The notes below the pieces were generated by a model. That model saw nothing but the letters and a program-made list of their open reading frames with translations. It did not search any database and had not been told where the DNA came from. Of a DNA stretch of 64,000 nt, positions 1 to 64,000 are shown piece after piece. A program made the translations under genes and the position numbers. The stretch spans positions 1,836 through 65,835 of the forward strand of contig CAVJMJ010000010.1 of NCBI GenBank assembly GCA_963650915.1, in the 5' to 3' direction. The stretch comes from Parasutterella excrementihominis (GTDB taxonomy: Bacteria; Bacillota; Clostridia; Christensenellales; Borkfalkiaceae). The number at the start of each line of letters is the position of its first letter. The stretch's first letter is position 1.

Positions 1-1252
1 CTTGTTCTACGGCGTCTTCGGGAGTGAATACGATTTTACCCGTTGCCGCGCCCGGGGAAGCCGCTATACCCTTGCCGACGATATTGTTTTCCGCTTCCTT
101 TAACGCTTTTGCGTCGAATTGAGGATGTAACAACATGTCGAGCGATTTGGCGTCGATTTGCATTAAGGCTTCCTGTTCGGTAATCATACCTTCGTCGATA
201 AGTTCGCAAGCGATTCTTATAGCGGCGGCTGCCGTACGTTTGCCGTTACGGGTTTGAAGCATGAAAAGTTTACCGCGTTCGATGGTAAACTCCATATCCT
301 GCATGTCTTTATAATGTTCCTCTAAGGTCTTGCAAATGCCGAGGAATTGTTGATAAACTTCGGGTAAAACTTCCGCCATTTGGGAAATCGGCATCGGTGT
401 TCTTACGCCCGCAACGACGTCTTCGCCTTGCGCGTTCATTAAGAATTCGCCCATCAAACCCTTTTCGCCTGTAGCGGGGTTACGGGTAAAGGCAACGCCG
501 GTACCGCAATCGTTACCCATGTTGCCGAATACCATTTCTTGTACGTTAACCGCGGTACCCCAGCTGTAAGGAATATCGTGATCCATTCTGTATACGTTGG
601 CACGGGGGTTGTCCCAACTTCTGAATACCGCTTTGATTGCTTCGAAAAGTTGTTCCTTAGGATCGGTCGGGAAATCTTTGCCGAGTGCCTGTTTATATTT
701 CGCTTTGAATTCTTCTGCAAGTTCGTGAAGATCTTCAGCCGTCAAATCGACGTCGAAAGTTACGCCCTTTTGTTCCTTCATCTTGTCGATTAAAGATTCG
801 AATTCCTTTTTGGAAACTTCCATAACGACGTCGGAGAACATTTGGATAAATCTTCTGTAACAGTCCCACGCCCATCTGGGGTTGCCCGATTTTTCGGCTA
901 AAACGCTTACTACTTCTTCGTTTAAACCGAGGTTTAAAATGGTGTCCATCATGCCCGGCATGGATGCCCTTGCACCCGAACGAACGGAAACGAGTAAAGG
1001 ATTTTCGGTATCGCCGAACTTTTTGCCGGTAATGGCTTCGAGTTTTTCGATGTTTGCCATGATTTCTTCACGGATGCCGTCGTTAATCATTCTGCCGTCT
1101 TCGTAGTACTTGGTACATGCTTCGGTAGAAATGGTAAAACCTTGCGGTACGGGTAAACCGATGTGTGTCATTTCGGCAAGGTTCGCGCCCTTACCGCCCA
1201 AAAGCTCACGCATGTTGGCGTTGCCTTCGCTAAATAAGTAAACGTATTTCAT
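1..1252 (-). CDS. ppdK: pyruvate, phosphate dikinase, N-terminal ~417 aa (C-terminus lies beyond the window edge)
   Basis: The reverse frame is open from the window edge to the ATG at 1250-1252. My translation starts MKYVYLFSEGNANMRELLGGKGANLAEMTHIGLPVPQGFTISTEAC and continues through MNAQGEDVVAGVRTP, the conserved PPDK N-terminus. It is absent from the ORF track because there is no stop inside the window. Confidence 0.85.
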   Translation of the reverse strand, partial: MKYVYLFSEGNANMRELLGGKGANLAEMTHIGLPVPQGFTISTEACTKYYEDGRMINDGIREEIMANIEKLEAITGKKFGDTENPLLVSVRSGARASMPGMMDTILNLGLNEEVVSVLAEKSGNPRWAWDCYRRFIQMFSDVVMEVSKKEFESLIDKMKEQKGVTFDVDLTAEDLHELAEEFKAKYKQALGKDFPTDPKEQLFEAIKAVFRSWDNPRANVYRMDHDIPYSWGTAVNVQEMVFGNMGNDCGTGVAFTRNPATGEKGLMGEFLMNAQGEDVVAGVRTPMPISQMAEVLPEVYQQFLGICKTLEEHYKDMQDMEFTIERGKLFMLQTRNGKRTAAAAIRIACELIDEGMITEQEALMQIDAKSLDMLLHPQFDAKALKEAENNIVGKGIAASPGAATGKIVFTPEDAVEQ

Positions 1253-1659
1253 AATTAACTCCTTGATAATTATATTTTTTATGATGTTTATATTGTTTTT
1301 TTATTTTTTTCTGTCGTTTTGTTTCGATTTATTGTATCGATTTATTGTATCGATTTGTTTGTTTCAATTTATTGTGTCGAGGTTGATGTCGTAAACGCCG
1401 TTTTTCGTTTTGATTCGTTTTGAGTTTTTGACACTTTGTCTTTTGAGTTTTCTGTCGTTTTTGCTTAAAAACCTTTCAATCGGTAAGTAAAAAACGTAAA
1501 AACGACCCTTAACCATAGTATTATAAACGAAAAATTGGTCTAAGTCAATGTTTTTAGCAAAAAATGCTTATTTACATGGTAAAAAATGCTAATTTACCCG
1601 GCAAAAACTTATCGTAAGGACGATAAAACCGCAAACGCATTGAAAAAACAGGTCTGTCT

Positions 1660-2784
1660 TTAAGGTTTTACAGGCTTGCCTAAGTTGGCGTAAAAGGTAC
1701 ATTCTATTCTTCCGTTATATAATTTGCGTTTTTTGTCGGCACGCTGACCGAAAAGCCTTTCAAAGTCTGAAACCGACGTTATCGTGTAAAAACACCAATC
1801 GGGGTTTGCTTTTCTCACCTTCCCGTAAGAACGGTAAAGTTTTTCTATCATCGGTCTTTCGTCGAGGCGTTCTCCGTAAGGCGGATTGGCAAAAGCGACC
1901 CCTCGCTTTTCGCTCGACAAAAAATTTTCCATAGACTGGTTTCTAAACTCTATAACGTCGTCGACGCCCGCTTGTTTTGCGTGAATTTTAGCAAGTTTAA
2001 GTTGCTTTTCGTCAATGTCGTAAGCAAGTATTTTACGAACGGAATCGTTAGATATCCGACCTATAGCCTCACTTTTTACGCTATCGTAAATTTTGCGGTC
2101 GTAATTTTTGAAGTTTAAAAAATCAAACTTTCTGTCAATCCCCGGGGCAATGTTTTTTTCCTTTCTTGCCGCTTCTATCGCAATGGTTCCGGTACCGGTA
2201 AATAAATCGCACATGGGTCTATCGGGGTTCCACACAGAAAGTTCCAACATCGCACTTGCCAAATTTTCCTTAATTTGGGCTTCTCCGTAAACGTTTCTGT
2301 AACCTCTGCGATGCAAACTTTCGCCCGATGCGTTGAGTAAAATCGAGCAAAAATCTCTCGTTATTGCGACTTCGACGTCGAACCTATCGCCGTTTTCGGG
2401 CAAAAATTCTCTTTTGTATCTTCTTTTAAGCCTTTCGCAAATTGCCTTTTTAACTATTGACTGCGTTGCCGAAAATGCACCGATTTTTGATTGCACGAGT
2501 TTGGGTTTTACGATAACGGCGCACGATTCGGGCAGGTAATTTTCCCATTCGATTGCGTAAACGTTATCGAAAAGGGTGTCAAAGTCGGTACATTTAAATT
2601 CGGATAACACCACGAACACTCTGCTTGCCGTCGACAAATAGACGTTGCACTTCGTTAAAAGTTCGTAGTCGCCTTCAAAAGTCATTCTGCCGTTTATGGC
2701 GGGGGCTTTTTCCACGCCTAAACTAAAAAGTTCTCTTTTTGTTGCCGCTTCTACGCCCGAAGCGCTCGACACCGATATTTTCAT
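1660..2784 (-). CDS. THUMP-domain class I SAM-dependent RNA methyltransferase (YpsC/RlmL-like)
   Basis: 374-aa ORF. It has an N-terminal THUMP-like region and a methyltransferase core (DLFTGTGTIAIEAA) with an NPPYG catalytic motif (FANPPYGERL). Confidence 0.75.
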   Translation of the reverse strand: MKISVSSASGVEAATKRELFSLGVEKAPAINGRMTFEGDYELLTKCNVYLSTASRVFVVLSEFKCTDFDTLFDNVYAIEWENYLPESCAVIVKPKLVQSKIGAFSATQSIVKKAICERLKRRYKREFLPENGDRFDVEVAITRDFCSILLNASGESLHRRGYRNVYGEAQIKENLASAMLELSVWNPDRPMCDLFTGTGTIAIEAARKEKNIAPGIDRKFDFLNFKNYDRKIYDSVKSEAIGRISNDSVRKILAYDIDEKQLKLAKIHAKQAGVDDVIEFRNQSMENFLSSEKRGVAFANPPYGERLDERPMIEKLYRSYGKVRKANPDWCFYTITSVSDFERLFGQRADKKRKLYNGRIECTFYANLGKPVKP

Positions 2785-6513: not shown

Positions 6514-7839
6514 TTAGAACTTGAAGGGTAACTTTCCTTTTCCGTTCTTCATCTGCTTTATCATAAGTTTTACTTGTTCGTATTGCTTTAAAAGATTGTT
6601 TATTTGTTGTAGCGAAGTTCCGCTTCCTTTTGCGATGCGCATCTTCCTCGAATAGTTGAGGATTTGCGGATTGCGTCTTTCTTTTAAAGTCATCGACTGA
6701 ATTATCGCCTTGGTACGGTAAATTTCCTTCTCGTCGATATCGCCCTCGTTAACCTTTAACTTACCCATGCCGGGCATCATGGACATAACCGCACTTGCAC
6801 CGCCCATTTTTTTGAGCATATCAATTTGGTCGAGATAGTCGTTTAAGTCGAAATTGTTTTCTTTTAACTTCTTTTCGAGTTTTTTTGCATCCTCTTCCTT
6901 TATGGCTTCCTGCGCCTTCTCGATAAGGGTTAAAACGTCACCCATGCCGAGAATTCTGTTTGCCATACGGTCGGGATAGAAAGGTTCGATGTCGGTAAGT
7001 TTTTCGCCTACACCGCAAAACTTAATGGGTTTCCCGGTAACGGCTTTAACCGACAGACACGCACCGCCCCTCGTGTCGCCGTCGAGCTTCGTCAAGACGA
7101 CGCCTGTTATGGGGAGCCTTTCCGAAAAGCCTTTGGCAACGTTTACGGCAACCTGCCCCGTCATGGAATCGACTACGAGTAAAATTTCAGTCGGGCTTAT
7201 GGCGGTGTTGATGTCTTCGAGTTCCGTCATAAGTCTGTCGTCGATTTCCAATCTTCCCGCAGTATCGACGATTACGGTATCATAGCCGTACTGTTTGGCG
7301 TACTCGACTGCCTCTTTTGAAATTTTAACGGGGTCACCCTGTCCTTTTTCAAAAACGGGAACGCCTGCCTTTTCGCCGACAACCGAAAGTTGTTTGATTG
7401 CAGCCGGTCTGTAAACGTCGCAAGCGACTAAAAGTGGTTTTTTGCCCTGCTTTTTAAGTAAAAGCGCAAGCTTTCCGCAAAGAGTGGTTTTGCCGGCACC
7501 TTGAAGCCCGCACATCATTATAATCGTAGGGGGCTTGGGGGAAACCTCGAGTTTTTGGTTTTGCCCGCCCATTAAAGCGATAAGTTCGTCGTTTACGATT
7601 TTAATAACTTGCTGGGTGGGGTTAAGGCTTTTTAAAATATCCTGCCCTACCGCCTTTTCGGAAACGGAAGCGATAAAATCCTTTGCGACTTTTAAGTTGA
7701 CGTCTGCCTCTAAAAGCGCGACGCGGATTTCACGCATTGCCTGCTTTATTTCAAGCTCGGTAAGTTTTCCTCTTTTAGTAAGCTTTGAAAAAACGTGATT
7801 TAATTTTTCGCCAAGTGAAGAAAACGACGCCATTTTCAA
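6514..7839 (-). CDS. ffh: signal recognition particle protein Ffh
   Basis: 441-aa ORF with an NG domain (GLQGAGKTT, DTAGR, TKLDGD) and a methionine-rich M domain. Confidence 0.95.
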   Translation of the reverse strand: MKMASFSSLGEKLNHVFSKLTKRGKLTELEIKQAMREIRVALLEADVNLKVAKDFIASVSEKAVGQDILKSLNPTQQVIKIVNDELIALMGGQNQKLEVSPKPPTIIMMCGLQGAGKTTLCGKLALLLKKQGKKPLLVACDVYRPAAIKQLSVVGEKAGVPVFEKGQGDPVKISKEAVEYAKQYGYDTVIVDTAGRLEIDDRLMTELEDINTAISPTEILLVVDSMTGQVAVNVAKGFSERLPITGVVLTKLDGDTRGGACLSVKAVTGKPIKFCGVGEKLTDIEPFYPDRMANRILGMGDVLTLIEKAQEAIKEEDAKKLEKKLKENNFDLNDYLDQIDMLKKMGGASAVMSMMPGMGKLKVNEGDIDEKEIYRTKAIIQSMTLKERRNPQILNYSRKMRIAKGSGTSLQQINNLLKQYEQVKLMIKQMKNGKGKLPFKF

Positions 7840-7846
7840 AACTCCT

Positions 7847-8125
7847 TTATTCTTTGTTTTTGCCCTCTTTAAGCGACTCGATAATCTCTTCTGTTTTTAT
7901 GCGATACGCCATAAACCCGACTCTTTTTTCAAAATCGTCAAGTTCGGATTTTATAGTTTTTATAGCGTCGAGAACGCTTTGGCGGGTACAGTTTTTGATT
8001 TCCGCGATTTCGGATAAGGATAAATCGCAAGAAAAGTACATATCCGCGATTTCCGCCTTGTTAGAAGTCAACAGCCCCTTGTATAAATCGAGGAGGGAGC
8101 AATACTTCATTTCTTCAAACTTCAT
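7847..8125 (-). CDS. ylxM: YlxM/UPF0122 putative DNA-binding protein
   Basis: Small HTH-like ORF immediately upstream of ffh. The start is chosen at MKFEEMKY (ATG 8123-8125), and 8110 is also possible. Confidence 0.7.
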   Translation of the reverse strand: MKFEEMKYCSLLDLYKGLLTSNKAEIADMYFSCDLSLSEIAEIKNCTRQSVLDAIKTIKSELDDFEKRVGFMAYRIKTEEIIESLKEGKNKE

Positions 8126-8492
8126 AACCCACCGCCGAAAAAAAGGTGTAAGGCAATTTAACCTTACACCGATATTATACACTATTATTTGACTTTGTCA
8201 AGCATTTTTGCCTTACAAACGATTATTTAGATAAAAATTTATCCGATTAAATTTGTCGTAACGATTTTCAACTACTTTTTTGCTCGTGTTATAAACGGGT
8301 TCTTCGTCAAAAAAACGTTCGAGCGGTCGGCTGTTTTTTGAGCGTTTACCGTTTAAAAAACTGTTTTTAAGCGGTTTATAATCGCTTTTGCTTTTATAAT
8401 CGCTTTTGCTTTTATAATCGTTTGGGCGGTTGGGTGTTTTGTCGAGTATTTTGTCGAGCGTTTTTTATTTACGCTTTTACTCTTTTACGCTT

Positions 8493-14946: not shown

Positions 14947-16074
14947 TTATTTTCTATAAGCCGACTCGGTTACTTCAAAAGGCTTTTCGATGGCGTTTTT
15001 TACGGCGTCAACGGCAATCAAACGAATTTTTTCATTAACGCCGACTGGCATATATTTAACGGTATCGGGCGAAACCCCTGTAAGCGTTGACGCAAGCATC
15101 AAACCCGCTATGTAGCGACCGACGTCGTAGGTAAGATGATATCCGTCACGGGTGAGATTATCCCCTATAAGCGAAGTCCTTGCGTTTTGTATAGCCGTTC
15201 CGCAAGCGATTATTTCTTGAATTTCGGGATTTTTAACTACTTTTTCCTTTACCGCAGAAACTATCGCATTATACATTTTTAACTGGTCGTTGTCGTAATT
15301 TACGAACTCTTCGTGACTACTCGTCCGTTGATACGCCCAAGTCATATTCCAAACTATCTTTGCCGACGGTGCGTAACTTTTTACGTAAGAAATCAAATAA
15401 GGAAGGTCGTCGTACCTTTCAATAAGCCCACTGCTTCCGCTTGCCTGTTGAAGGGTTATAACGTCCCAAGTTTGGCTTAAAAGAGCCTCTTTAACGGAAA
15501 CGCCCTTTCTGTTTCCCCATGCGCCGTCATCGTTGTTTCTATACTCGTAAGCCTTTAAATCGTTTTTGGCGTTATATGCGTGTGTCTTTAAGGTGCACCC
15601 GCCTATATATAAGTTGCCGAGAAAAATATTTTCGACCCCGAAATCGTCTAAAATCGAATATACGTATTGCATTGTGTCGTCGGAAAAACTGTTTCCTATC
15701 GCAAGAATTCTCATATTTTCTTTATATTCTCCGTTATAATTTTCGTTGTTATCGTTACCGCAAGCGGTAAAAAAGCAGGTGCAAACGGCAAGCGTTAGAC
15801 ACAAGCAAACTGCAAGCAAATTGCGAGTACAAACGGCAAATGAATTGCGGGCATAAGCGGAACGCCGATTACAAGTACAAACTGCAAAAAAATTACGAGT
15901 AGCAACGGCAAACGAATTGCGGGTACAAACGGCAAGCCTATTACAAGTATAAGCGGAACGCCTATTACGAGCCGTTTTATAGCGCAGCTCTTTCTTTTTT
16001 TGCTCATTGCTTCTCGTTTTTAATTCCACGTTGCTCGTTTTTAATTCCACGCTGCTCGTTTTTCGTTTTTGCAC
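14947..16074 (-). CDS. DUF4886-like (SGNH-fold) lipoprotein with a repeat-encoded N-terminal region; start uncertain
   Basis: The C-terminal ~270 aa (ILAIGNSFSDDT...) resemble DUF4886/SGNH hydrolase-like proteins. A lipobox-like FFTAC-G lies at about aa 105. The first ~100 aa are encoded by 24-nt and 21-nt tandem repeats, and the only ATG is at 16074. Confidence 0.55.
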   Translation of the reverse strand: MQKRKTSSVELKTSNVELKTRSNEQKKKELRYKTARNRRSAYTCNRLAVCTRNSFAVATRNFFAVCTCNRRSAYARNSFAVCTRNLLAVCLCLTLAVCTCFFTACGNDNNENYNGEYKENMRILAIGNSFSDDTMQYVYSILDDFGVENIFLGNLYIGGCTLKTHAYNAKNDLKAYEYRNNDDGAWGNRKGVSVKEALLSQTWDVITLQQASGSSGLIERYDDLPYLISYVKSYAPSAKIVWNMTWAYQRTSSHEEFVNYDNDQLKMYNAIVSAVKEKVVKNPEIQEIIACGTAIQNARTSLIGDNLTRDGYHLTYDVGRYIAGLMLASTLTGVSPDTVKYMPVGVNEKIRLIAVDAVKNAIEKPFEVTESAYRK

Positions 16075-16250
16075 TCTTTCGCTTATCTCTTTACCCTATT
16101 TATTATCGTCGCTTTATTTAATTATGTCGCACCGTTTAATCTTGCCTATTTGTTTAATTATATTAACACAAAGTCGAATTTTCGTCAACTTTTGCATGTC
16201 AAATTTTTTCGCTACGTAAATTACCGTATTAACTAAATTTCTGCGCTAAG

Positions 16251-16886
16251 CAAACAAGACGGGTAAAAACCCGTCTTGTTTGCTTGGTAGCCCCAAGGGG
16301 ACTCGCTCCGCAAGGCAACCGCCTTGCTATCACGCAGGTAAAGGCAAACGCAACACTGTTGCGTTTGGTCGGCTTGCTTCCGCGGTAACTTAATCTCCCT
16401 ATTGCAAGCCAACTACCCACCCGTTCTCGTCCCCTTTTTATCTTTACAAACAAACAAGACGGGTAAAAACCCGTCTTGTTTGCTTGGTAGCCCCAAGGGG
16501 ACTCGAACCGCAAGGCAACCGCCTTGCTATCACGCAAGTAAAGGCAAACGCAACACCGTTGCGTTTGGTCGGCTTGCTTCTGCGGTAACTTAATCTTCTC
16601 TGTTGCAAGCCGACTACCCACCCGTTCTCGTCCCCTTTTTATCTTTACAAACAAACAAGACGGGTAAAAACCCGTCTTGTTTGCTTGGTAGCCCCAAGGG
16701 GACTCGAACCGCAAGGCAACCGCCTTGCTATCACGCAAGTAAAGGCAAACGCAACACCGTTGCGTTTGGTCGGCTTGCTTCTGCGGTAACTTAATCTTCT
16801 CTGTTGCAAGCCGACTACCCACCCGTTCTCGTCCCCTTTTTATCTTTACAAACAAACAAGACGGGTAAAAACCCGTCTTGTTTGCT
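16251..16886 (-). repeat. three tandem ~200-bp units, each with a ~125-nt structured segment, an exact 25-nt copy of the tRNA-Glu 3' end and a terminator hairpin
   Basis: TGGTAGCCCCAAGGGGACTCGAACC recurs at 16285, 16485 and 16686 as well as in the real tRNA at 16887. The hairpin CAAACAAGACGGG-TAAAAA-CCCGTCTTGTTTG precedes each copy. The 208-aa and 63-aa track ORFs here are repeat artefacts. Confidence 0.85.
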
Positions 16887-16961
16887 TGGTAGCCCCAAGG
16901 GGACTCGAACCCCTGTTTTCGCCGTGAGAGGGCGACGTCTTAACCGCTTGACCATGAGGCC
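16887..16961 (-). tRNA. tRNA-Glu (anticodon CUC), CCA encoded
   Basis: The reverse complement reads GGCCTCATGGTCAAGCGGTTAAGACGTCGCCCTCTCACGGCGAAAACAGGGGTTCGAGTCCCCTTGGGGCTACCA. I folded it by hand. The 7-bp acceptor stem has two G-U pairs, the anticodon stem is TCGCC/GGCGA with loop CTCTCAC, and the T arm is AGGGG-TTCGAGT-CCCCT. Confidence 0.85.
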
Positions 16962-17342
16962 TTATTTCGTTTGCCCGATAATAATAACACATTAAACTGA
17001 ATTTAGCAACGCTTTTACTTGAAAATCCCAAAAAAATAATTAAAATTAAGGCTATTTTAGTTGCCGAGAAGGATTTTATATCATATCGGACGAGAACGGA
17101 ATAAAAAATATATAAAATTACTTAAAAAATTCGCCTTAAAAAGCACTAAGGCACATTCGACTTAAAAAACGCCAAGCCACCTTCGATTTAAATAACGCTA
17201 AGGCATCTTCAACTCAAAAACGCCAAAACATCTTAAACTTGAAAAACTAAACGGCATCGTTAAATTAAAAAACAAACGGCTCTTTACATTAAAATACGAT
17301 GTGAATACCGCTCGTCGTCGATAGGCTTACAAACGATATAAA

Positions 17343-17873
17343 TTACGCAAATAAAAGTCTTACTTTATTAAAATTACCCTTTTTAAGATCGTCTTCGGAA
17401 ATTATAAAATACAAACTCGTTTCGCCGTCCGACAAAAAATCGATGTCGAGGCTTGAGGGAAGGTATCTTAAAAGAGCGACTTCGCCGTCGTTTACGTTTT
17501 CGTCCTTACAAAGAAGAGCCGTGCCGTCGTTGCCGAGTTCGAAAGTCATCGGCCACTCGGTGTAAACGTCGTAATCGCCTTCCCAGTCCTCGTTAAACAT
17601 AGTATAAGCGTCGGCTTCGCCGTCGTAATATCTTACGACCGCTTTTGGCTTTTTCTCCGTGTAATCGATAAAAAAGTACAAAAGACCGCTTTCGGGCAAA
17701 AGCGTTTTGCCTACTGATTCGTAAACTTCTTGCAAATTTATCTGACACAAATAAAGTTCTTCGGGGGCGAAAACGTCTTTTTCGAGCCATTCTTCGGGAA
17801 GTAAAATTTCGCCGAAAAACTTACTGACTTCGATGTCGCAATCTTCGTCCCTAACCGTTATTTTTACGCTCAT
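17343..17873 (-). CDS. DUF1963 (YwqG-like) domain protein
   Basis: The start MSVKITV (ATG 17871-17873) has GGAGG ~10 nt upstream. LCQINLQEV...LPESGLLYFFIDY and a C-terminal SLYFIISEDDL resemble the DUF1963 signature. Confidence 0.55.
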   Translation of the reverse strand: MSVKITVRDEDCDIEVSKFFGEILLPEEWLEKDVFAPEELYLCQINLQEVYESVGKTLLPESGLLYFFIDYTEKKPKAVVRYYDGEADAYTMFNEDWEGDYDVYTEWPMTFELGNDGTALLCKDENVNDGEVALLRYLPSSLDIDFLSDGETSLYFIISEDDLKKGNFNKVRLLFA

Positions 17874-18675
17874 TTTTTTGTGCCTCCTTAATGGCAATGT
17901 AATCTTTGTCTTTTGAAAAATCACGGCTGAAATCGGCTTGTCCGCCGAGGGCTTCTATCGCAATTAAAATTTCTTTGGTCGAAACGTAATCGTTTGTTTT
18001 TTGCAACCCTTCATAAAGGGTATCCAAAACGCTTTCGTCGTCGTATTCAACAAGATACGAGCAATACTCCGGTGCCTTTTTAAGGTTTGAAGAAAATTCC
18101 CTTTCAAGGGTTTTCGTCATAATTTTGCTATGCTTTTTTTGCTTGGAAATAAGGTCGCAAAGTTGAGAGGTAACGACTGCGTTTTCGTCATTTAAATAGT
18201 CGTTTATTTTATCGAAAACTTCTTTGTCGGAAAGATAATCCACACAGGCGTCAAGCACGTCTTTTGAACGTTTGCCTTCAAAAAGTACCTCTATAAGCCC
18301 GTTATCGGCGTTTTTTGAGTTTTTGTGCGTCAAAACTTCGATAACGATTAAAAGTAAATCGTCCGAACTTTCTTTACTTATAAGTTTAATGAGTTCGTCC
18401 TCGCCCGCATAGTCTATAAGCGCGTCGATAAGGTATTCGGATACGGGTACGCCTAAAGCAAAATGTTCCTTTAAAATATCTACGACTTCGCAACTTTTAT
18501 CTTCGTAAAAATTTAACGGCGTTTTGCCGTCCAACTTATCGAAGGTCGTTTTGGAAAAGGCGTCGTAAACGGCTTCCTTTTGTTCGTCGACGTCCCCTTT
18601 GAGATTTTCTTTGTTTTTTAAAATATAATCTTTGGCAAAAGTTTTGAACAACTCGTCAATATCAACAATCTTCAT
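17851..18675 (-). CDS. hypothetical acidic helical protein
   Basis: 274-aa ORF with no motif I recognise. It overlaps both neighbours, which suggests one transcription unit with the TPR gene and the DUF1963 gene. Confidence 0.5.
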   Translation of the reverse strand: MKIVDIDELFKTFAKDYILKNKENLKGDVDEQKEAVYDAFSKTTFDKLDGKTPLNFYEDKSCEVVDILKEHFALGVPVSEYLIDALIDYAGEDELIKLISKESSDDLLLIVIEVLTHKNSKNADNGLIEVLFEGKRSKDVLDACVDYLSDKEVFDKINDYLNDENAVVTSQLCDLISKQKKHSKIMTKTLEREFSSNLKKAPEYCSYLVEYDDESVLDTLYEGLQKTNDYVSTKEILIAIEALGGQADFSRDFSKDKDYIAIKEAQKNERKNNG

Positions 18676-38173: not shown

Positions 38174-38500
38174 GCGCGACTTTTTTGCACCCGTTTTGGT
38201 AAACGAGCGACTTTTTTTATGCGCCCGTTTTGGTTATTTGGGCGTAAAATTTTTTTGCGCCCGAATTATTAGACAAGCGTAAAATTTTTTTATGCTCGAA
38301 TTATTAGACGAGCGTAAAATTTTTTTGCGCTCGAATTATTAGACGAGCGTAAAATTTTTTTGCGCTCGAATTATTAGACGAGCGTAAAATTTTTTTGCGC
38401 TCGAATTATTAGACGAGCGTAAAATTTTTTTGCGCTCGAATTATTAGACGAGCGTAAAATTTTTTTGCGCTCGAATTATTAGACGAGCGGTTTTTTTATG
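38174..38500. repeat. tandem 35-bp hairpin repeat array (7 regular units from 38257, with degenerate units before them)
   Basis: The unit GCGCTCGAATTATTAGACGAGCGTAAAATTTTTTT starts at 38257, 38292, 38327, 38362, 38397, 38432 and 38467. Each has a CGCTCG/CGAGCG stem. Confidence 0.85.
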
Positions 38501-39213: not shown

Positions 39214-42200
39214 CTATTTAACTAAAATCATTTTGAGTGCGGACAAAATCGAAATAAGCAAACCGCCGATAACCGCACTTAACATGCTGTTATAAGTCTT
39301 TTGAACGACCGTGTCGGCAGTGTTGACCTTTTGGGTGTAAGCCGTCCACAAGCCTTTGTAACTCGTGACTGCGTCGGAGCATTTTTCGAGCGTGCTTTCG
39401 ACCTTTACGGAGTTGAGGTTTTCCCTGATACCGATGAGTAAGCCGAGTTTTTGCGAATCTTCTGCCGTTTCGTAAGAAGCGAGCGACGCATAAACCTTTT
39501 CCATGTAAGATACGGTTGCGTATTTAGCGTCTAAATCTTCCAAAGCAGAAGTCCAGGCTTCGTTGTCTGCTATCTGCCATTTATCCGATTCGGAAAGGTT
39601 ATCCGAAAGCGTCTTAGCCTCTTTGATTTTGTTGAGGTAATTTTTACCGGTCAATTCGTTTGCGGAGTCTACGGTGTCGGTAATTGCTTTAACGTTAGCC
39701 AAAGCGTTTTTGACGAGGTAGAATTCCACAGACGTTTCGCCCTTGTAGTTTTCATCGTCAACGGTGGCGGTAACTTTGTATTTACCCAAAGTGCTTAATT
39801 CGGTAACTGCTTTTCCGTCTACCAAGTAAGACAATACGGTAGCGACGTCATAGCCTTCGACCGATGCGCTTACGGCAATGTCTGCACGGTAAACCAAATA
39901 GTTCTTATCGCCTTTGTTGATAGTAACGTTATCGGAAATGTCTTTCTTTTCGACGGTTACGGTGTACTCGGTTTGAACGCCCGATTTAAACTCGTAAGCA
40001 GATTTGTTGACGATTTCGATGACCATCTTGTATGCGCCTGCGTTGACGACGGAAGTTACTTCTTGACCGTCGGCGTCGTAATATTTGGCGCGGAAGGTGT
40101 TTTCGGTCGCACTTTCCAATGCGCCGACGACGTTCTTAAGCGAGAAGGCTTTAACTTCTTCACCGCTGTAAACGTAATTCAAAACTAAATCCTTGAAGGA
40201 AATTTGCGGAAGGGTTACCGTCAAAGTACCGTTTTCAACGGTTACGTCGTAGTTGTCGTTACTATAGGTTGCCGAAACTACGTGTCTGCCACCGCAGAAT
40301 ACCTTAAAGAAGTTTTCGCTGTTAAGTGTGTCGTTGTTTATCGTAACGAAAGTTTGAACGTTCAAGCTGTCGCCCGAAACTACGTTTTCGGTAATATAAC
40401 CGTCTTTAATCAAAGCGTAAATATCAGACCACTTAGCGGTGTTGTCGGTAGACTTATCGGAAACGACGATTTTAGCCGTGCGCTTACCGATAGTGTAAAC
40501 CGAGTTATTTGTTTTGGTGTATTGAACTTTAACGTTGTAGTTATCGTTGCTTAAAACTTCCGCCGTAATCTTATAAGTGCCTACGTTTTCGCCTTCCTCT
40601 CTCGAAACTTTAACGATGCTTGCAAAGTTATCGGTAAAGGCAAAGGAGCCTGCTATAACCGACAATTTGATTTCGCCGTCCTTATCGCCGTAAGTCTTGG
40701 AGCCGTCGGCAACGGACACGGTGATATCCTTAGCGGTAATCGTATAAGTGGCTTGAGTAAAGGTTATGGTGTAGTTAGCGTCTTTATCTTCACCGCTGAT
40801 TGCGTAAGTACCGACGTTTTCGCTCTGCGCTCTTGTAAGAAGGTATTTCAAATCTTCCAAACTATCGCCGTTAGCCAAAACACCGCCGACGACTTCGGTT
40901 ACAACGAGTGTTTCGTCTTTATCGCCGTAAACTTTGGTAAGAGATTTAACGTTAACGGTAATAGGTCTTTCGGTTACGGTGTAAGCACCTTCGTAACCCG
41001 TAAAGGTTATGCTGTAATTGTTGTTTAAGCCCTTGCAAGAAACGTCGTAAGCACCGACGTTTTTAGCGGTAACGGCAAGTTCGTACAAACTGTTCAAATT
41101 GTCGCCCGCGCCCAAAGTACCGCCTGTCAAAACAGCCGTGAGGTTAGCGAGTTCGTCGCCGTAAACGCTGGTAGCCTTTTGAACTTCGAGAGTGATTTCG
41201 TTTGCTACTATTTCGTAAATTACATAAGCGTCGTTTGCGAGTTTGTAGTTATTCGCACTTGCACCGCTTATAGCGTCTGCATAAAGTTTGTAACTGCCTA
41301 CGTTCTTGTTTTCCGAAGATTTATTGGAAACCGTAACTTCGTCCTGACCGATGAGGTTAGTCGCTATAATTTCGGGAGCGATATAACTTCCGTTGTAAAC
41401 GAGTTTACCATCTTTTGCTTCCAAGGTTAATTCTTTTTTGGAAACCTCGAAGTATTCGGAATAACTTTCTTCTTCTACCTGAACTTTTACTTCGTAAGTA
41501 CCTGCGTTCTTAATGGTAGGTTGCGATACGAAGGTAAATGCGTTAACTTTATCGCCTGTTTGAGTTATGGTTACCGAAACTTCGTAAGTTACGACCGTAC
41601 CGTCGTAAATATGACTGTCTACGGTTTCGCCCTTGTTGTTCTTAAAGGTAACGGTTACCGTGTAGTAATCGTTATCGCCGACTACTTTGATATTGCCGTA
41701 TTTATTGCAATACGAAGAATAGTTGTCGTTGTTTGCGATTGCTTCTATAACGTAACTTGCAACGTCGAGTTGTTTGTTCAATTTGCCGGTAGCGTCGATA
41801 GTAGCAATTACATTACCGTCTGCGTCCAAAACGTTATAAGTAAGATTTGCATTGTCACTGCCGACTAAGCCGACGACTTTTGCGTCTATATCCGTAACGT
41901 ATTCGGAAGACTGTTTAATGTTTGCGTGGTCGGAAACGCTTATCGTAATCGATTTTTTGGTGATTTCGTAAGCATTTTCGCCGTTTACGAGTTCAATAAT
42001 GTAGTAAGCGGTGAATTCCGTATTAACGGTTGCGGATACGTTGTAGTTACCGACCGTTGAACCCGCTACTCTTGAAAGAGTGTAAACGTCGGCTTCACTG
42101 TCGCCGTAAACAAGACCTTCGGTTGTTGCGGTTAACGCCTTTTCGTCTTCGCCGTAAACTACGGATTTTTTATCTACCGTAACGGTTATGGTACGAACGG

Positions 42201-45200
42201 TAACGTTTTGTTCTGCAACTTCAGCCGTCAAACCGTATTCAGCGCCGTTATAAGTTTTTGTTAAAGCGTATTGAAGTTTAGTTTCCGTCTTACTTGCGGT
42301 TGCTTCTGTCTTATTGCCGTTTATAGCGGTTAAAGTAACGGAAGCGGTATCGGCACCGTATTCTACGTTGCCGTTTATAGCCATAGATGCGAAAATTTCT
42401 TCGGCATAAGAATTAGTATTGCCTATACGTTTTTCAACGAATTCTTTAACATCAGAAGTCGCACCTTCTATAAGTCCGTTATACTCATTCCAAAGCGTTT
42501 GTGCGCTTGTGATAATGGTGTCGCCTTTTAATTGAGCGTTGAAAGCTTCAACGTCTGCGATGTATTGCGCCAAAGACTGGGTGTGAACGTAAAGGGTGGT
42601 TTTGCCCGTGAAACTATAATCGTCGTTTTGAACAACAACATTTTCGGTTACGTAAGCAGTTGTAGGAGCGTCAACAATAGTAAGTTTTACGTACAAACCT
42701 TCGGCATCGCCGTAGTAGGTAACGAGGGCGAAAAGCGCGAAGTCTTGGATGATTTTGCCGTCCTTGTCGTAAATACGCATCGTTTGGGTGCCGTCTTTTT
42801 CTAAATCGAGTTCAACCGATTTAATTACTTTGTCGAGTGCGGTTTCACCGTTGATAACGACGTTTGCTGTGTATTTAACTTTTTGGTAGCCTTCGGTGTA
42901 ATAAGTGATAACGCCGTCTTTGGAAATTACCGCTTGTGCGCTGAATTTGCCGTCAACTATCGTGGCGTTTTCGGAACCGCCGACGTTTACATTAACGCCG
43001 TTTGCGCCGTTTACCGTGAAGTTAACCGTTGCAACGTAGTTTGTGCCGTTCCATTCAAGGAAGCGACCTTTCATTGCTTGGTTAAGGATAACGGAAAGTT
43101 TTTCCGAATCGATTCTCGATGCTTCGGTTGCCGTGAAGCTTTCGAGCGTGAAGGCGTCATTGCTAAAGCCTTTATAGGTTTTACCTGTTTCGAGTTGTAC
43201 AAAGTTGTAAAGCCCGTAAATGCGACCGCTCATACTGAATTTTGCGGTATTGTCTACATAACCGCCGGAGCAACCTTCGGTTATCTCCTGCGTGCCGACG
43301 GTAGCGTCTGTATCGACGTTAACCATAGCCGTTTTGCCCGTCGTTTGCAAGATGCCCGCAAACGCACCGTCTATGTTAAGGGTGCCGTTTACTATAAGCA
43401 TACCGCTTTGGCTAAATTTATATTCAGCTAAAACTTTGTTAGAGGGGTATACCTTACCGCTCTTGTCGGCTTGAATAAGTCCGTCGTAAACGTAGATTGC
43501 GCCGTTTGCGCCGATATTGACGGTTGCGCCCTCTTCGATAGTGACGACCGCGCCCGGCATGATTTTGTATTTTTGATCTACCGTAACCGTCGAACCCGAC
43601 TTAAAGTTAAAGTTATAGGTGTAAGGTATGGCAAGAACCATTTTACCGCTACCGTAACCTTGTAAGTAGAATTCACCTGCGGTGATAGCACCGTACACGT
43701 CGATAGTGCTGAGTCCGCTGTCGCCCAAATGGATATTGCCGACTTGCTCGTTTACCTTTTTATTGTCGTCGTAAGTGATTTCAAGACGACTGCCTTCTTG
43801 CATCCAGATAAGCGCACCTTGTGCACTCGTCCCGGTAGACTTATTTGCTATACTGTCGATTAAAATTACGTCTTGCGTATGTATTGAAGACCAGAAGTAA
43901 AGGGAAGTAGAACCAAGCACTGTTGCGCCGTAGTTAATAATTTGTTTGCATTGTACGTTTACCGTTGCAAACTGAGTAAAGGGGAACTGATCTGCATAAT
44001 ACAACGCATCGGTATTTGTACCGCCCGAATAGTTATTGACCATAAAGGGTTGGCGTAAAGTAGCACCGTTATTTACGGTTATGCTTCCTTCGCCCGTTAC
44101 AAGCCCTATAACGTCCATATAGCCGTTTATTACTATGCTTCCGTTATTTACAAGTTGAGCATAGTCGCCCGAAGTACGACCGGTTGCTTGTTGGTCGGTA
44201 CCGTGTTGTACACCGCCGACGATAAGTTTGCCGTTTACCGTTAACGTTGCTCCGCTATTTACGGTCAAGGTTAAATAAGGCTTAATATTGTTATTCCAAC
44301 TGGCCCTTGAAGTTGAAGTGTTGTTTTGTTTATAACCCGTTTCGTCCGTCGATGAATACGCCAGAACGAGGGTTACGTTTGCGGGGATTTCGAGGTTATT
44401 TTCAATAACACAGTCGTTTATAACGACTATCTTACTGTCCTCGGTATAAGCGATTGCTTCGGCTAAAGATTTATAAAACCTTTTGCTATCCCTTGCAACG
44501 TATTTTGCCGATGACGCACTTGTAACTATTGCTTTGTATGCAGTGGTTTCACTCGTGGTATAGAAAGTATACTTAGCGTCGAAACTTTCTATTTTATCCG
44601 TCAATACGTTAAACCAGCCGTAAAATTTGCTACCCGTACCACCGCTTACGTATTCCAAAGTAATTTGTGAACCTATAGATACTTTTCCGCCGTTTTTGAT
44701 TTCGGTTTCTCCGCACTTAGCGGTTATACAATTATTTAAGGCAGTTTCACTTGCGGAGTATCTTACCGTAGAATCACCCGTTGCATACCCTACGTTTGCT
44801 ATTTCAAATATATCGTCATATCTATCGACACTACCGTCTTTTACAAAAGCGAAATGTATAGTTATGGAAGTCTCCCCATCAGGAATCTCTATAGGTAAAG
44901 TCAAAGTTTTCCAACCTAAATCACCGCTTGATAATGCTGAACTACCTTGTTTATAATCGTCAGTAATATCACCGCAAATATACGGGAACTCGGTTCTATT
45001 TAAGTATGTTATCGGCGGTATATCATTTTCGCCATACCCACTTGATACGATTCTTTTTCTCCAGTTGCTATAAACAATATCGCAGTTAGACTCTGTTGAA
45101 ATGTAATAATCAAATGTCAAAGTACCGGTTTCATAAACAGTAAAGGCAATGCCCGAAGACGAGGATCCTACACTTTGGTTAGTACTTGCAAAAATGTAAG

Positions 45201-47805: not shown

Positions 47806-48094
47806 AAAAATTAAATCTCCTTTCATGTTATTTTTTTCGTTTTTCATGATATGTTTAAACGATATACCCCTCCCCTTTCTTCAAAAGGCAAGTTTGAGTT
47901 TTTTGTTTTGTGGACGTGCGAGCCTTTTTAATGTGCTCGCCGTTTTTTGTTCGGTGCATTCCTCTTTTGTTCGGTCTTTTCAAGGCGCACCTTTTTTGCC
48001 TTTTTCATCAAGGGGCAATATATCGGAATTTTTTTGTTGTTGGTTTGTTTGTTTGGGGGTTGGCTTGGGTTGTGGGTTGTTTGGCTCCCTTGTA

Positions 48095-48415
48095 TTAGCC
48101 TTCACCCGGTAGGGGTGCGTAGGCGTTAAGCGGATAACACAGTGTGTTGTCCGTAGCCGTAGCCCGAGGCTTTAATAGCCGAGGCGGACTGGGGAACCGC
48201 CTTGCGGTGGATGAGGTTGGACGGTTTAGATAACCATAACGTTAATATTAACTTTCCAACCTCCTCAGTCGCTACGCGACAGCTCCCCCTACCAGGTGAA
48301 GCCTTGCTGACGCGTGCCACCGTCCACCTCGGTCTTACGACCTTCGGGCTACGGCTACAAACAGTGCACTATGCTGTTTGCTTAACACCTGCGCACCCTT
48401 TGCACAAGGGAGGTT
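48095..48415. repeat. copy 1 of a palindromic structured repeat family carrying the GGTGAAGGCTTGCTGACGC box
   Basis: GCCTTCACCCGGTAGGGG (48098-48115) is complementary to CCCCTACCAGGTGAAGCC (48286-48303). The internal ~90 nt are near-identical to 49703-49798. An extra ~80-nt arm (48116-48195) is the inverted complement of 48314-48397. Confidence 0.8.
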
Positions 48416-48844
48416 CAATCTTCTCCACAACTATTCCTATCTATATACCTTTTACGCTACCGCTTTGTTTGAAGTTTTTTTAAATTTTTTTAAATTTTTT
48501 TAAAAATTTATAAAAAGCGTAAAAAGTTATGAAAAGCGGTCGGGCGGTTAGCCCGAATATGTACAGAAAAATCAGATACGGTCTGAATTTACGTGTGAAT
48601 TCGTAGTGATTTTTCTTCGTCTATTAAGGCATTAGATGAATATTTCGTGAAGTATTATACAACTTTTAGTATGAAAGGTCAAACGTTTTTAGCGAATTTT
48701 GGCGAATATTCACAAAATATATTTATATAATCGAAAAATCGGCTTATTTTAACCGATTTTTAATGTGCATTTGTCGTGTTTTTTTCATTACGTATGCCTT
48801 TTTTCTTCGCCTAATGCCTTATTAGACGAACTTTTTTATTACTC

Positions 48845-49489
48845 CGTATGCGTTTTGTTATAACGCATACGAATTTTTGTCTTTTTCTCGTATGCGTTTT
48901 GCTATAACGCATACGACTTTTCTTTTTTTACTCGTATGCGTTTTGTTATAACGCATACGACTTTTCTTTTTTTACTCGTATGCGTTTTGTTATAACGCAT
49001 ACGACTTTTCTTTTTTTACTCGTATGCGTTTTGTTATAACGCATACGACTTTTCTTTTTTTACTCGTATGCGTTTTGTTATAACGCATACGACTTTTCTT
49101 TTTTTACTCGTATGCGTTTTGTTATAACGCATACGACTTTTTGTCTTTTTACCCGTATGCGTTTTGTTATAACGCATACGATTTTTTGTCTTTTTCTCGT
49201 ATGCGTTTTGCTATAACGCATACGACTTTTCTTTTTTTACTCGTATGCGTTTTGTTATAACGCATACGACTTTTCTTTTTTTACTCGTATGCGTTTTGTT
49301 ATAACGCATACGACTTTTCTTTTTTTACTCGTATGCGTTTTGTTATAACGCATACGACTTTTTGTCTTTTTACCCGTATGCGTTTTGTTATAACGCATAC
49401 GATTTTTTGTCTTTTTCTCGTATGCGTTTTGCTATAACGCATACGAATTTTTGTCTTTTTCTCGTATGCGTTTTGTTATAACGCATACG
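48845..49489 (+). repeat. array of 15 tandem 44-bp hairpin units, terminator-like on the + strand
   Basis: Each unit is CGTATGCGTT-TTGTTAT-AACGCATACG (a perfect 10-bp stem) followed by ACTTTTCTTTTTTT. Hairpins start at 48845, 48889, 48933, 48977, 49021, 49065, 49109, 49154, 49198, 49242, 49286, 49330, 49375, 49419 and 49463. Confidence 0.9.
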
Positions 49490-49590
49490 ATTATATATAT
49501 TGTCAAGCGATTTTTTTAATTGTATATAAACTTTCTGACGAATGCAATTTTTTGTTGCTAAAAATTTGCAAATAATTAGCAAAAAATCGC

Positions 49591-49642
49591 TTGACAATAT
49601 ACCCCTCGGGGGTATACAATAAAAATACCCCGTGGGGGTATT
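49591..49642 (+). promoter_or_regulatory. sigma-70-type promoter overlapped by two CsoR-operator-like GC-rich palindromes
   Basis: TTGACA (49591-49596), an 18-nt spacer, then TACAAT (49615-49620). ATATACCCCTCGGGGGTATA (49597-49616) lies between the -35 and -10. AATACCCCGTGGGGGTATT (49624-49642) lies just downstream. Both fit the ATACCC-N4-GGGTAT type of CsoR box as I recall it. Confidence 0.6.
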
Positions 49643-49680
49643 CTGATATGTTAAGGTCGAGCAAAGATAGACTTTACATC

Positions 49681-50242
49681 GTTAGCCTTCACCTGGTAGG
49701 GGAAGGGGGACCGCCTTGCGGTGGATGAGGTTGGACGGTTTAAATAGCCGCAACGCTAATATTAACTTTCCAACCTCCTCAGTCGCTACGCGACAGCTCC
49801 CCCTACCAGGTGAAGGCTTGCTGACGCACGCCACCTGTCCACCTCGGCTAAAATAGCCTCGGGCTACGGCTACAAACAGCGCACTGTACTGTTTGCTTAA
49901 CACTTACGCACCTCATCCGAGGTGAAGGTTTGCTGACGCTCAGTAAGTCTTTTCTGAGATGTGACGCCTGCGCACCTCATCCGAGGTGAAGGCTAACAAG
50001 GTTGGACGGCTTATATAACTGTAAAGTTTATAAATACTTCGATAACAAAAAAAACATTCTATATGTCCATTATTGCTGTTTTTTTATAAGGTTGAGCGAT
50101 TATATTAACTTTCCAACCTCATCCGTCGCTACGCGCCACCTTCCCCTACCAGGTGAAGGCTTGCTGACGCTTAACATATGCCTTTCAAGGTGAAGGCTTG
50201 CTGACGCATTTACGCACCTTACAAGGTGAAGGCTTGCTGACG
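49681..50242. repeat. cluster of structured palindromic repeats (copies 2 and 3 plus three short box units) in the csoR-copA leader
   Basis: There is an 18-bp perfect stem between 49685-49702 and 49800-49817. GGTGAAGGCTTGCTGACG(C) boxes lie at 49809, 49921, 50152, 50189 and 50225, with a variant at 49985. Confidence 0.8.
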
Positions 50243-50404
50243 AAATTACAAATACGGAATGGCAATTTTTATAATATGCGCGGCTTTGCCGCTAGATCCT
50301 TCGTCACCTCAGGATGACCCTGACGGAAGACTTTGTCTACGTGGTGAAACCTTTCATGTGAAGGCAGAAAAGTTAACAAAAAAATTACTAAAAAGGTAGA
50401 AAAA

Positions 50405-62123: not shown

Positions 62124-62435
62124 ATAAAAAACTCCTTTTTCGTCAAATGCGACATAAAAAATATAAACCGCAAGGTGCAAATTGTAAAGCCAAAAAAACC
62201 GAAAATCGCTCAACAATTTGTTGATTTTGCTCAACAAATTGTTTAATAGCCGTGTTTTTGGCAAATAATATTTCAACCCCGAGATTTTTCTCGATTCAAC
62301 GGCTTGTTGATTTTTATCCCCGTCAATATGATAAAATTTGACTGCGCTGTGACGCTTAAGTGATTTTAATAATATTATATCAAGACTTTTGACCTATGTC
62401 AAGACTTTTGACCTTAGCTAAAATATAATTTGACT

Positions 62436-63563: not shown

Positions 63564-64000
63564 TTATTGTTTATTTAAATGTTTAGGTTCGGTCATGGCG
63601 TTTACGTCAAGCACTTTGTTTAACGTTTCCCCGTCCATTAGCCCGTCACGCAACACTATTTGTTTTACCGTCACGCCCGTATCGAGTGATTCGTGGGCAA
63701 TTGCCGCCGCCTTTTTGTAGCCGATATAGGGTGACAAAGCGGTTACGACTGCGATGCTTCCGTTTAAAAGTTCGGAACAACGTTTAATGTTTGCGACGAT
63801 GCCCGATATGCAGTTATCTATAAGCGTCGTAATAGCGCCCGTCAACATGGAGATGCTTTCGAGCATGGAATAAAAGATAACGGGCTCGAAAGCGTTAAGT
63901 TCGAGTTGTCCCGCCTCGGCTGCCATAGTAACGGTAAAGTCGTTACCGATTACTTTAAAAGCGACCTGACTTACTACTTCGGGAATAACGGGGTTGACTT
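63564..64000 (-). CDS. aspA: aspartate ammonia-lyase, C-terminal ~145 aa (N-terminus beyond the window end)
   Basis: The reverse frame is open to the window edge. My translation reads [42 protein letters not shown]. This matches the AspA signature region (E. coli [42 protein letters not shown]) better than fumarase. Confidence 0.8.
   Translation of the reverse strand, partial: [144 protein letters not shown]

Follow-up and report, generated by a model that had tools for sequence, protein, structure and literature searches.

A candidate structured non-coding family behind transfer RNA genes of uncultured gut Christensenellales

In a 64-kb stretch of the metagenome-assembled contig CAVJMJ010000010.1 (the window), three tandem units of about 200 nucleotides (nt) follow a transfer RNA (tRNA) gene, tRNA-Glu, and each ends in a copy of the tRNA 3' end. 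We analysed these units together with their relatives in other genomes and in metagenomes. The body of the unit, 125-150 nt long, appears from sequence comparison to be a previously undescribed structured non-coding family that lies directly behind tRNA genes in uncultured gut Christensenellales. Its fold is kept by compensatory changes, its ends match the upstream tRNA and its copy number varies among relatives. The reading that we favour, and in which we have about even confidence, is that the units are a new structured RNA family that would be expressed by read-through from the tRNA promoter, closed by pairing between a copy of the tRNA T arm and its complement, and tied to the tRNA by recombination within the T arm, with the three copies in the window being a recent local expansion. 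Transcription, processing and any activity of such an RNA we infer.

The three-unit array, its relatives and their match to the tRNA

The only tRNA called in the window was a tRNA-Glu(CUC) with an encoded CCA at 16961-16887 on the minus strand (T arm AGGGG-TTCGAGT-CCCCT). Both ARAGORN and Rfam called it, in agreement with the original prediction, which had been made from the letters alone. Tandem Repeats Finder reported a period of 201 nt across 16251-16911 (3.3 copies, 98% matches, score 1259). When divided at its four CCA ends, the array gave units at 16886-16686 (201 nt), 16685-16485 (201 nt) and 16484-16285 (200 nt), as had been proposed for three head-to-tail units of 201, 201 and 200 base pairs (bp). 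Each unit ends in GG(TT/AG)CGAGTCCCCTTGGGGCTACCA followed by the hairpin CAAACAAGACGGG-TTTTTA-CCCGTCTTGTTTG, so the claim that each carries the tRNA 3' end and the same hairpin also held. The block common to the units and the tRNA locus is 58 nt long (25 nt of tRNA end, 2 nt and a 32-nt hairpin, less 1 nt of overlap at the first base of the hairpin). The terminator-like hairpin directly 3' of the tRNA lies at 16853-16884 on the minus strand and has a 13-bp stem with a U-rich run past the GC core; identical 32-nt copies were found at 16652-16683, 16451-16482 and 16251-16282. From each terminator an A-rich spacer, TTTGTAAAGATAAAA, leads into the unit (16838-16852 on the minus strand, and again at ~16637-16651 and ~16436-16450), and an A-rich spacer of 12-16 nt occupies the equivalent position in all relatives.

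Unit 1 spans 16686-16837 on the minus strand from its first folded base to the CCA. In order, it consists of the segment that we call anti-T, which forms the 5' strand of the closing helix P1 (16825-16837; first 13 nt AGGGGACGAGAAC), helix P2a (16769-16815), helix P3 (16746-16768), the junction GCGTGATAG (16728-16736), helix P4 (16711-16728), the 3' strand of P1, GGTTCGAGTCCCCT (16697-16710), and the tail TGGGGCTACCA (16686-16696). Unit 2 (16485-16636, minus strand) is identical to unit 1 at every position, with each feature shifted by -201. Unit 3, the distal copy (16285-16435, minus strand), differs from the other two by 8 substitutions and 1 deletion; the predicted divergence was therefore real, and its count of about ten positions was not. 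Seven of the 8 substitutions are unpaired, and the remaining one turns a C-G pair within a helix into U-G, which keeps a wobble pair. In unit 3, GGAG precedes CGAGTCCCC (16296-16309), and this GGAG matches the units of every other species examined.

We weighed the explanation that the units are decayed tandem tRNA-Glu duplicates or a mis-assembled repeat. Their 3' 25 nt are the tRNA end, the contig belongs to a metagenome bin, and breaks occur at this point in related contigs. However, the body is unlike a tRNA, TGCGG and CCCCT cannot pair to give a T stem, and neither ARAGORN nor Rfam (E up to 10) called the units, as the original prediction had held in denying that they are tRNAs. The same architecture was present in independent assemblies from ENA, NCBI, JGI and Logan, and the same body with tRNA-Pro ends, described below, is not derivable from tRNA-Glu. 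We consider this explanation very improbable, with only the exact copy number exposed to assembly error: short reads are poorly suited to counting two identical 201-nt copies, and the figure of three may be a lower bound or an error. Independent assemblies break or are N-scaffolded at the tRNA-Glu/unit locus (contig ends of L087, L088, L092, L002 and L096-L100; L086 3738-3747), and the units are a recurrent source of fragmentation in genome bins.

The syntenic locus was traced in species-representative genomes via DnaG and also via the upstream DUF1963 protein; downstream DUF4886 homologues were dropped as a route to orthologous loci, having proved to be paralogues in other contexts. With the DUF1963 protein of the window as reference for its three units behind tRNA-Glu, the loci L086/L087 (78% identity) have one full unit and a truncated second copy, an arrangement shared by L002, which was found via DnaG. 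L003/L090/L091 (73%) have one shorter unit with the end GAGTCCCCTC, which lacks the acceptor/CCA tail and is followed by a different terminator. L103 (60%) has one divergent unit, followed by a 62-nt repeat of the tRNA tail and terminator. L096 (58%) retains only the first 32 nt of the unit, a 5' stub, and L094 (66%) and L099 (57%) have no unit. Unit counts thus range from 0 (L094, L099) through a stub (L096), one (L003, L103, L083) and one plus a stub (L086, L002) to three in the window, and the genes downstream of the units vary between species. The body behind tRNA-Glu recurs in three related Christensenellales species, and the unit is old at the tRNA-Glu locus. Collectively, the comparison with related genomes showed a copy number of 0-3 and helices that covary (12-13 of 36 pairs).

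The body was also found at other tRNA genes in ruminant gut metagenomes. A scan of these metagenomes revealed L083, in which the same body lies behind tRNA-Pro(CGG) and shares with the window an identical 28-nt block, GACCAAACGCAACGGTGTTGCGTTTGCC, as well as GCGTGATAG. Comparison of contigs from sheep-gut runs with L003 yielded two further relatives, apparently behind two further tRNAs. The first (the X7 variant) lies behind a third tRNA with the end ...CCCCTCGTCTCTACCA and carries the tag TCGTCTCTACCAA, and the second carries the tag GAGTCCCGCCTTCTCCGCCA, which resembles a tRNA-Ser end. The contig depths of both track the L003 locus across three samples, and from depth the two relatives and the L003 locus may share one genome. 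Scans with nhmmer and a covariance model detected no further copies, either in the window or among the 1.4 Mb of related loci, and a downstream anti-T behind the 23 tRNAs in these 1.4 Mb was found only at unit-bearing tRNAs. Family spread and per-genome copy numbers from the collection scans are lower bounds.

L083 also carries at least two tandem ~170-nt units upstream of its tRNA-Pro (1808-2186, minus strand), which mirror the 3' units. They contain the first 23 nt of the tRNA, GC-rich hairpins, GCGCGCCACCAAACTG and a promoter-like A/T stretch; GCGCGCCACCAAACTG is a 16-nt complement of tRNA positions 13-28 with one mismatch (anti-D), and the body of these 5' units is folded (z = -3.9). At 1135-1290 (minus strand) of L083, inverted tRNA 3'-end fragments, TGCGGTGGGGGGATTTGAACC ... 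GGGGGTTCAAATCCCGTCTCCGCACCA, surround ~110 nt of A/T-rich sequence. Small genes beyond this, including one for a 54-aa protein, look mobile-element-like to the eye.

In all lineages the unit starts 46-50 nt past the CCA, following the terminator and the A-rich spacer. Anti-T, its first 13-14 nt, complements tRNA positions 53-65/66, which comprise the T loop and the 3' strand of the T stem. The 3' strand of the unit is a copy of tRNA positions 56-65 (the T copy), often extended through the acceptor strand to the CCA, and anti-T and the T copy pair to form P1. That AGGGGACGAGAAC complements the tRNA in this way and pairs with the unit's own 3' copy had escaped the original prediction. Anti-T matched its upstream tRNA at 14/14 positions in the X7 variant, at 13/13 in L096, L103, a variant in run X4 and L083 (anti-T ACGGGACTTGAAC, tag GGAGCAAGTCCCGTCACCTCGACCA), at 13/13 with wobbles in L003, and at 11/13, with a tandem GA, in the window and L086. 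Positions 54-55 of the T copy read AG instead of UU in every lineage, TT being present only in units 1 and 2 of the window. Because of this AG, anti-T pairs better with the true tRNA strand than with the unit's copy.

L003 lacks the acceptor/CCA tail that most other lineages carry, and the tail is thus not essential to the family. The proposal of small RNAs with tRNA-like 3' tags came closer than its alternative, with the T-loop/T-stem copy constant as a strand of P1 and the acceptor/CCA part dispensable. L003 points to transfer between tRNA genes: its terminator, spacer and unit share homology with their counterparts behind the third tRNA (X7 variant), and its tag retains the 'TC' of that tRNA. 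Miniature inverted-repeat transposable elements and repetitive extragenic palindromes are defined by terminal inverted repeats and many dispersed copies in a genome; in the contig-level data compared with them, anti-T and the T copy serve as inverted ends, several tRNAs have a copy behind them, and the ends vary with the tRNA.

The window genome has an additional match. CCGTTCTCGTCC at 17088-17099 (minus strand), which lies on the upstream side of the tRNA promoter at a distance of 127 nt from the tRNA, is an exact 12-nt complement of the units' anti-T, GGACGAGAACGG, including its lineage-specific GA. This site and anti-T bracket the entire promoter-tRNA-terminator cassette. It was seen only in the window genome and is absent from L087 and L003.

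Fold, covariation and folding strand

Six distinct sequences were aligned to examine covariation, of which one had been reconstructed from difference tables of contigs. Four helices were tested: P1, in which anti-T and the T copy form 9 pairs, P2a (up to 10 pairs), P3 (10 pairs) and P4 (7 pairs). In the MAFFT alignment, 94.5% of the cells held standard pairs and 12 of the 36 pairs had changed on both sides. None of 500 shuffles reached the observed pairing values, and when the partners were slid by 1-3 columns, pairing fell to 31-42% with at most 4 both-side changes. Addition of L103 by covariance-model alignment, which leans to the model, gave 94.7% paired cells and 13 both-side changes. RNAalifold recovered P1, P2a, P3 and P4 unaided.

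The compensation is visible in the strands themselves. P2a occurs as GTCGGCTTGC/GCAAGCCGAC, GTCGCCTTGC/GCAAGGCGAC, GTCGCCGACT/AGTCGGTGAC and GCGACGACT/AGTCGTCGC, and P3 as CAAACGCAAC/GTTGCGTTTG, CAAACGCAAT/ATTGCGTTTG, CCAAGGCAAC/GTTGCCTTGG, CAAACACAAC/GTTGTGTTTG and CAAACAGTCC/GGACTGTTTG, the last two pairs each belonging to a different sheep-gut variant. In P4, GCAAGGC/GCCTTGC is replaced by GTAAAC/GTTTAC. Two of the three body hairpins originally drawn, GTCGGCTTGC...GCAAGCCGAC and CAAACGCAAC-GGT-GTTGCGTTTG, are conserved and correspond to P2a and P3. The third, CTTGC-GTGATA-GCAAG, is not conserved; the conserved helix at its place is P4 (GCAAGGC-GGTT-GCCTTGC), and GCGTGATAG is a conserved unpaired junction. 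The sequences between the helices are near-invariant (GAAC, GGG, TTTGCC, GCGTGA(T/A)AG and GGAG). A fixed junction with variable helices is the pattern of folded functional nucleic acids and is not expected of an abandoned att scar, and the compensatory substitutions are those looked for in a generic structured non-coding RNA.

These results bear on the first of two origins that had been put forward, a relic duplication of an att site amplified by unequal crossing-over. As an inert scar, the array would come from a tRNA-Glu integrative element that lost its interior, leaving joined att arms to be amplified and a body without function. The identity block does begin in the T loop, copy number varies and stubs occur among relatives, the genome is rich in intergenic tandem repeats, and some relatives have lost the unit. 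Unequal crossing-over between the 58-bp repeats thus survives as an account of copy number, with its variable counts and stubs. It does not account for the body, for which decay would be expected, yet four helices are kept by 12-13 compensatory changes with fixed junctions across species and tRNAs. Moreover, the 5' end of the unit co-varies with the upstream tRNA, and the body is on no known element searched. We therefore regard an inert scar as improbable.

The strand that folds was assessed from pairs that are tolerated on one strand only. Changes of one partner only gave G-U/U-G pairs on the tRNA-sense strand; these were seen in L083, L003, the X7 variant and the distal unit of the window. 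Tandem 5'-GA/3'-AG makes up the non-Watson-Crick cells of P1 (window, L086) and of P4 (L083); it is tolerated in sense and would be a pyrimidine-pyrimidine clash in antisense, supporting folding of the tRNA-sense strand. On the same strand, intrinsic-terminator hairpins with U-runs and unrelated sequences flank the unit in every lineage. The earlier argument from G-U pairs, that the minus strand is the RNA strand, accordingly holds in most helices; one helix of L003 points the opposite way and is taken up below.

Expression, mobility and likeness to known systems

The mechanism that we propose for the favoured read-through RNA can be set out from one copy, which consists of the intrinsic terminator of the tRNA, an A-rich spacer of 12-16 nt, the 13-nt anti-T, P2a/P3/P4, the T copy and a terminator. 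Polymerase reading through the tRNA terminator would produce an RNA of the tRNA-sense strand with its 3' end at the next terminator. The T copy is a direct repeat of the tRNA end ~200 nt upstream, and unequal recombination between the two may expand, trim and delete units. Units 1 and 2 would be a very recent duplicate and the array a lineage-specific expansion between 58-bp repeats, in which the native AG may have become TT in units 1 and 2 through conversion from the tRNA. The distal stubs (L002, L086, L096), the losses (L094, L099) and the joint found in run X27 could all stem from unequal recombination. Since the T-arm sequence is near-universal, recombination there may also have moved units to other tRNA genes, with anti-T adapting afterwards. 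As a working guess, anti-T would switch between two partners: the T copy of the same unit, with 10-11 pairs, and the T-arm strand of an unfolded or cleaved cognate tRNA, with 13-14 pairs.

The only promoter-like site directed into the array is that of the tRNA gene (17009-16981, minus strand; TTGCTA, 17 nt, TATTAT with TG), and no promoter-like site was found ahead of any unit. Any RNA would thus need read-through of the tRNA terminator, and the idea of small-RNA units each with its own terminator has to be amended in this respect, the RNA itself being predicted from the fold. Rfam 15 yielded no family other than tRNA above the gathering threshold in the window, L083, L087 and L003 (gathering threshold and E up to 10), so the units match no Rfam family; the sub-threshold matches are hairpin look-alikes to microRNA models that span the terminator. 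Literature searches found no described equivalent of the units.

Several points weigh against the read-through RNA. The lack of a unit promoter is one; with a good terminator separating the unit from the tRNA, anything above low expression would require substantial read-through. No RNA runs were listed as holding the unit stretch of L083, and in the one metatranscriptome examined depth was present over the tRNA sequence only, with none over the unit. The unit is missing or stub-sized in L094, L096 and L099 and hence dispensable, and a deletion variant in run X27 that lacks P3 was itself amplified. The alignment is small (n=6 sequences), and kinship can inflate the shuffle statistics. Covariation is equally expected from single-stranded DNA of the same strand. 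Finally, three C-A/A-C mismatches in P3 of L003 on the sense strand are wobble pairs on the antisense strand, which leaves the strand call not unanimous; we tend to read the L003 P3 as decaying, since a close paralogue has a perfect P3.

The fold could alternatively serve a gene-less integrative element, the main rival, which we take seriously and do not consider probable. The element would be a circle of ~200-270 nt made up of tRNA tail, terminator, spacer, anti-T, body and GGAG. In its single strand, anti-T and the T copy would pair into a duplex that mimics the T arm of the tRNA gene, and this mimic would be the attachment site at which a recombinase encoded elsewhere exchanges strands, comparable to integron attC sites or the CTX phage attP hairpin. 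Integration would rebuild the tRNA 3' end and give a new terminator, and arrays would arise by repeated integration or unequal crossing-over. The direct repeats (58 nt in the window, 62 nt in L103, 22 nt in L083 and 10 nt in L003) begin in the T loop like those of tRNA-targeting islands. Terminator and spacer move with the unit, as shown by the homology of L003 with the X7 variant and the 'TC' in the L003 tag, and in L083 and L003 the post-unit terminator differs from the post-tRNA one, as for a displaced host terminator. At least 3-4 different tRNAs are involved, presence is patchy, stubs occur, and the deletion variant in run X27 has a tandem or circular joint (265 nt back, 22 letters shared). 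As expected of a target-recognition element, anti-T has a better complement in the intact tRNA (13-14 nt, including GTTC) than in the GAGC copy within the unit. L083 adds the mirror-image 5' units (promoter, tRNA positions 1-23, anti-D) and the nearby small genes judged mobile-like by eye.

Against such an element, no integrase, transposase or other mobile gene was found in the scanned open reading frames (ORFs) of the window, in line with the original statement that integrase and cargo are lacking at the locus, and no recombinase family was found among the genes called beside the units in L003, L086 and L103. Such an element also lacks a free circular form. The body had been expected at the end of a known integrative element if the array were an att relic, but it was not found in the phage, plasmid and viral collections. 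Blastn of the unit against INPHARED phages and PLSDB plasmids gave only 36-nt chance matches, and exact 20-21 nt body patterns gave no match in viral contigs (IMG/VR) beyond chance ones within the coding sequence of GC-rich phages (L001, L082). The genome collection had no match to such patterns either, and a six-frame pseudo-protein query for spurious ORFs over homologous arrays also gave none. The compensated helices at one orthologous site across species point to selection in place and not to decay. In the window, L086 and L103 the post-unit terminator is identical to the post-tRNA one, where simple integration predicts otherwise, and AG for TT destroys the GTT required by an integron-type site.

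A related idea, which we hold to be rather unlikely, is that the units recognise their tRNA by base pairing, either as gene-less elements or as riboregulators. As mobile elements, anti-T would guide insertion at the T arm and bring in a replacement 3' end and terminator, and mirror units of the L083 type would supply a promoter and a 5' end. As a switch, anti-T would leave its built-in T-arm decoy for an unfolded or cleaved cognate tRNA. Under both versions, a single genome would carry a set of units, each fitted to a different tRNA.

Each of the nearest known systems has one or two features in common with the units and a defining feature that the units lack. Integron attC sites and the CTX phage attP(+) hairpin are recombination sites folded from single-stranded DNA. 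Like them, the units keep structure over sequence, have an imperfect inverted repeat that closes a variable centre, form tandem arrays, have ...AAC at the inner end of the 5' arm facing G.. on the 3' arm, and show an unpaired bubble beside the presumed exchange point. The attC criteria compared were the RYYYAAC ... GTTRRRY boxes, L boxes with extrahelical bases, a length of 57-141 nt and a genomic IntI. By these criteria an integron attC, or a cluster of attC sites lacking an integrase, was rejected, since the 5' arm of the units ends in GAAC but the 3' arm reads GAGCGAG or GAGCAAG, with no GTT, and there is no IntI in the window. In contrast to attC, the 3' arm holds GAGC in place of GTTRRRY, no IntI or Xer context and no cassette ORFs were found, the arms copy the tRNA T arm and vary with the neighbouring tRNA, and the centre is a three-hairpin junction and not a free-form loop.

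Among RNAs, the 3' external transcribed spacer of leuZ in E. coli is a functional RNA released from a tRNA trailer. It resembles the units as a non-coding RNA between a tRNA gene and a terminator that relies on the tRNA promoter, whereas in the units a terminator intervenes after the tRNA, and they are far larger and highly structured, carry a T-arm copy and its complement, and form arrays. Transfer-messenger RNA (tmRNA), YrlA/Y-like RNAs and viral tRNA-like 3' ends also place a tRNA-derived 3' sequence including CCA on a larger structured RNA, but the units form no T stem-loop or acceptor helix, and their tRNA-derived strand serves P1. A tmRNA or tRNA-like RNA was rejected, as ARAGORN called no tmRNA and no Rfam family of that kind reached threshold. 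Small ribozymes (hammerhead and others), T-box, retron RNA, CRISPR and omega/bridge RNAs were rejected for want of their defining features or partner gene and of Rfam support. Type III antitoxin repeats were rejected on a period of 201 nt in place of ~36-45 nt and a downstream gene for a DUF4886 lipoprotein-like product in place of an endoribonuclease toxin.

The att repeats of tRNA islands and of integrase-less cis-mobilisable remnants, as catalogued by Islander (general principle in PMC4383910 and PMC9897764), likewise present a partial copy of a tRNA 3' end downstream of an intact gene, with identity that starts in the T loop, a tRNA-adjacent sequence that gives a replacement 3' end, and possible tandem accretion. 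The displaced direct repeat of the tRNA 3' end is indeed present here; integrase, cargo and a body on intact elements were not found. The units differ in being only 140-215 nt long with a compensated multi-helix fold, their far end is an inverted T-arm complement, which att arms are not known to need, and they are conserved across species at an orthologous site. With the guide-bearing RNAs of mobile elements, IS110 bridge RNA and IS200/IS605 omega RNA (PMC13565253), the units share a structured non-coding RNA of 100-200 nt with short target-matching segments. Unlike these, they have no attached recombinase or nuclease gene, repeats of 10-62 nt versus a 2-nt core, and no Rfam match.

Genomic context and implications

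The window has a G+C content of 41% and represents the core chromosome of an uncultured Christensenellales/Clostridia bacterium; the proteins closest to its DnaG come from metagenome bins that bear the label uncultured Clostridia or Christensenella. On one flank of the array lie rpoD, dnaG, bioY and the DUF4886 gene, and on the other the genes for DUF1963, a TPR protein and hsp33. More distant genes include trmD, rimM, rpsP, ffh, rnhB, asd and dapB. Pfam scans of 40 ORFs found only housekeeping or uncharacterised genes and no integrase, transposase or phage gene; these scans covered the window except for five ORFs (7785-8192, 16229-16855, 39214-47847, 61326-62276 and 63564-63926). The ORF at 16229-16855 is spurious and runs across the repeat units, and that at 39214-47847 (minus strand) is a single ORF of 2877 aa. 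The DUF1963-like ORF (17343-17924) and the 274-aa ORF upstream of it (17851-18675) overlap by ~70 nt in different frames, and this overlap was called in all relatives.

Intergenic tandem repeats are abundant in this genome (21 separate arrays in 26 rows, score >=80). Repeats of 21-26 nt lie on both sides of the tRNA/unit locus (15806-15973, 16009-16063 and 17129-17294), that at 16009-16063 partly overlapping the mechanical start of the DUF4886 ORF. A 35-nt intergenic repeat is present in 7 near-perfect copies at 38242-38489. At 48834-49490, in a stretch poor in ORFs (47850-50400), 15 head-to-tail 44-nt copies each carry the hairpin CGTATGCGTT-TTGTTAT-AACGCATACG (G+C ~31%); a CRISPR identity was rejected for this array because it has no spacers.

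The units break assemblies at tRNA loci in Christensenellales bins and can be mistaken for tRNA fragments or att scars. If they are mobile, they would be among the smallest integrative elements known, with a target apparently recognised by complementarity, and would bear on how tRNA genes turn into integration hot spots. If the fold acts as RNA, the units would represent a new class of bacterial non-coding RNA, whose closing helix is a copy plus the complement of the T arm of the neighbouring tRNA, re-tailored for each tRNA, and this would point to a direct link with tRNA folding, processing or damage.

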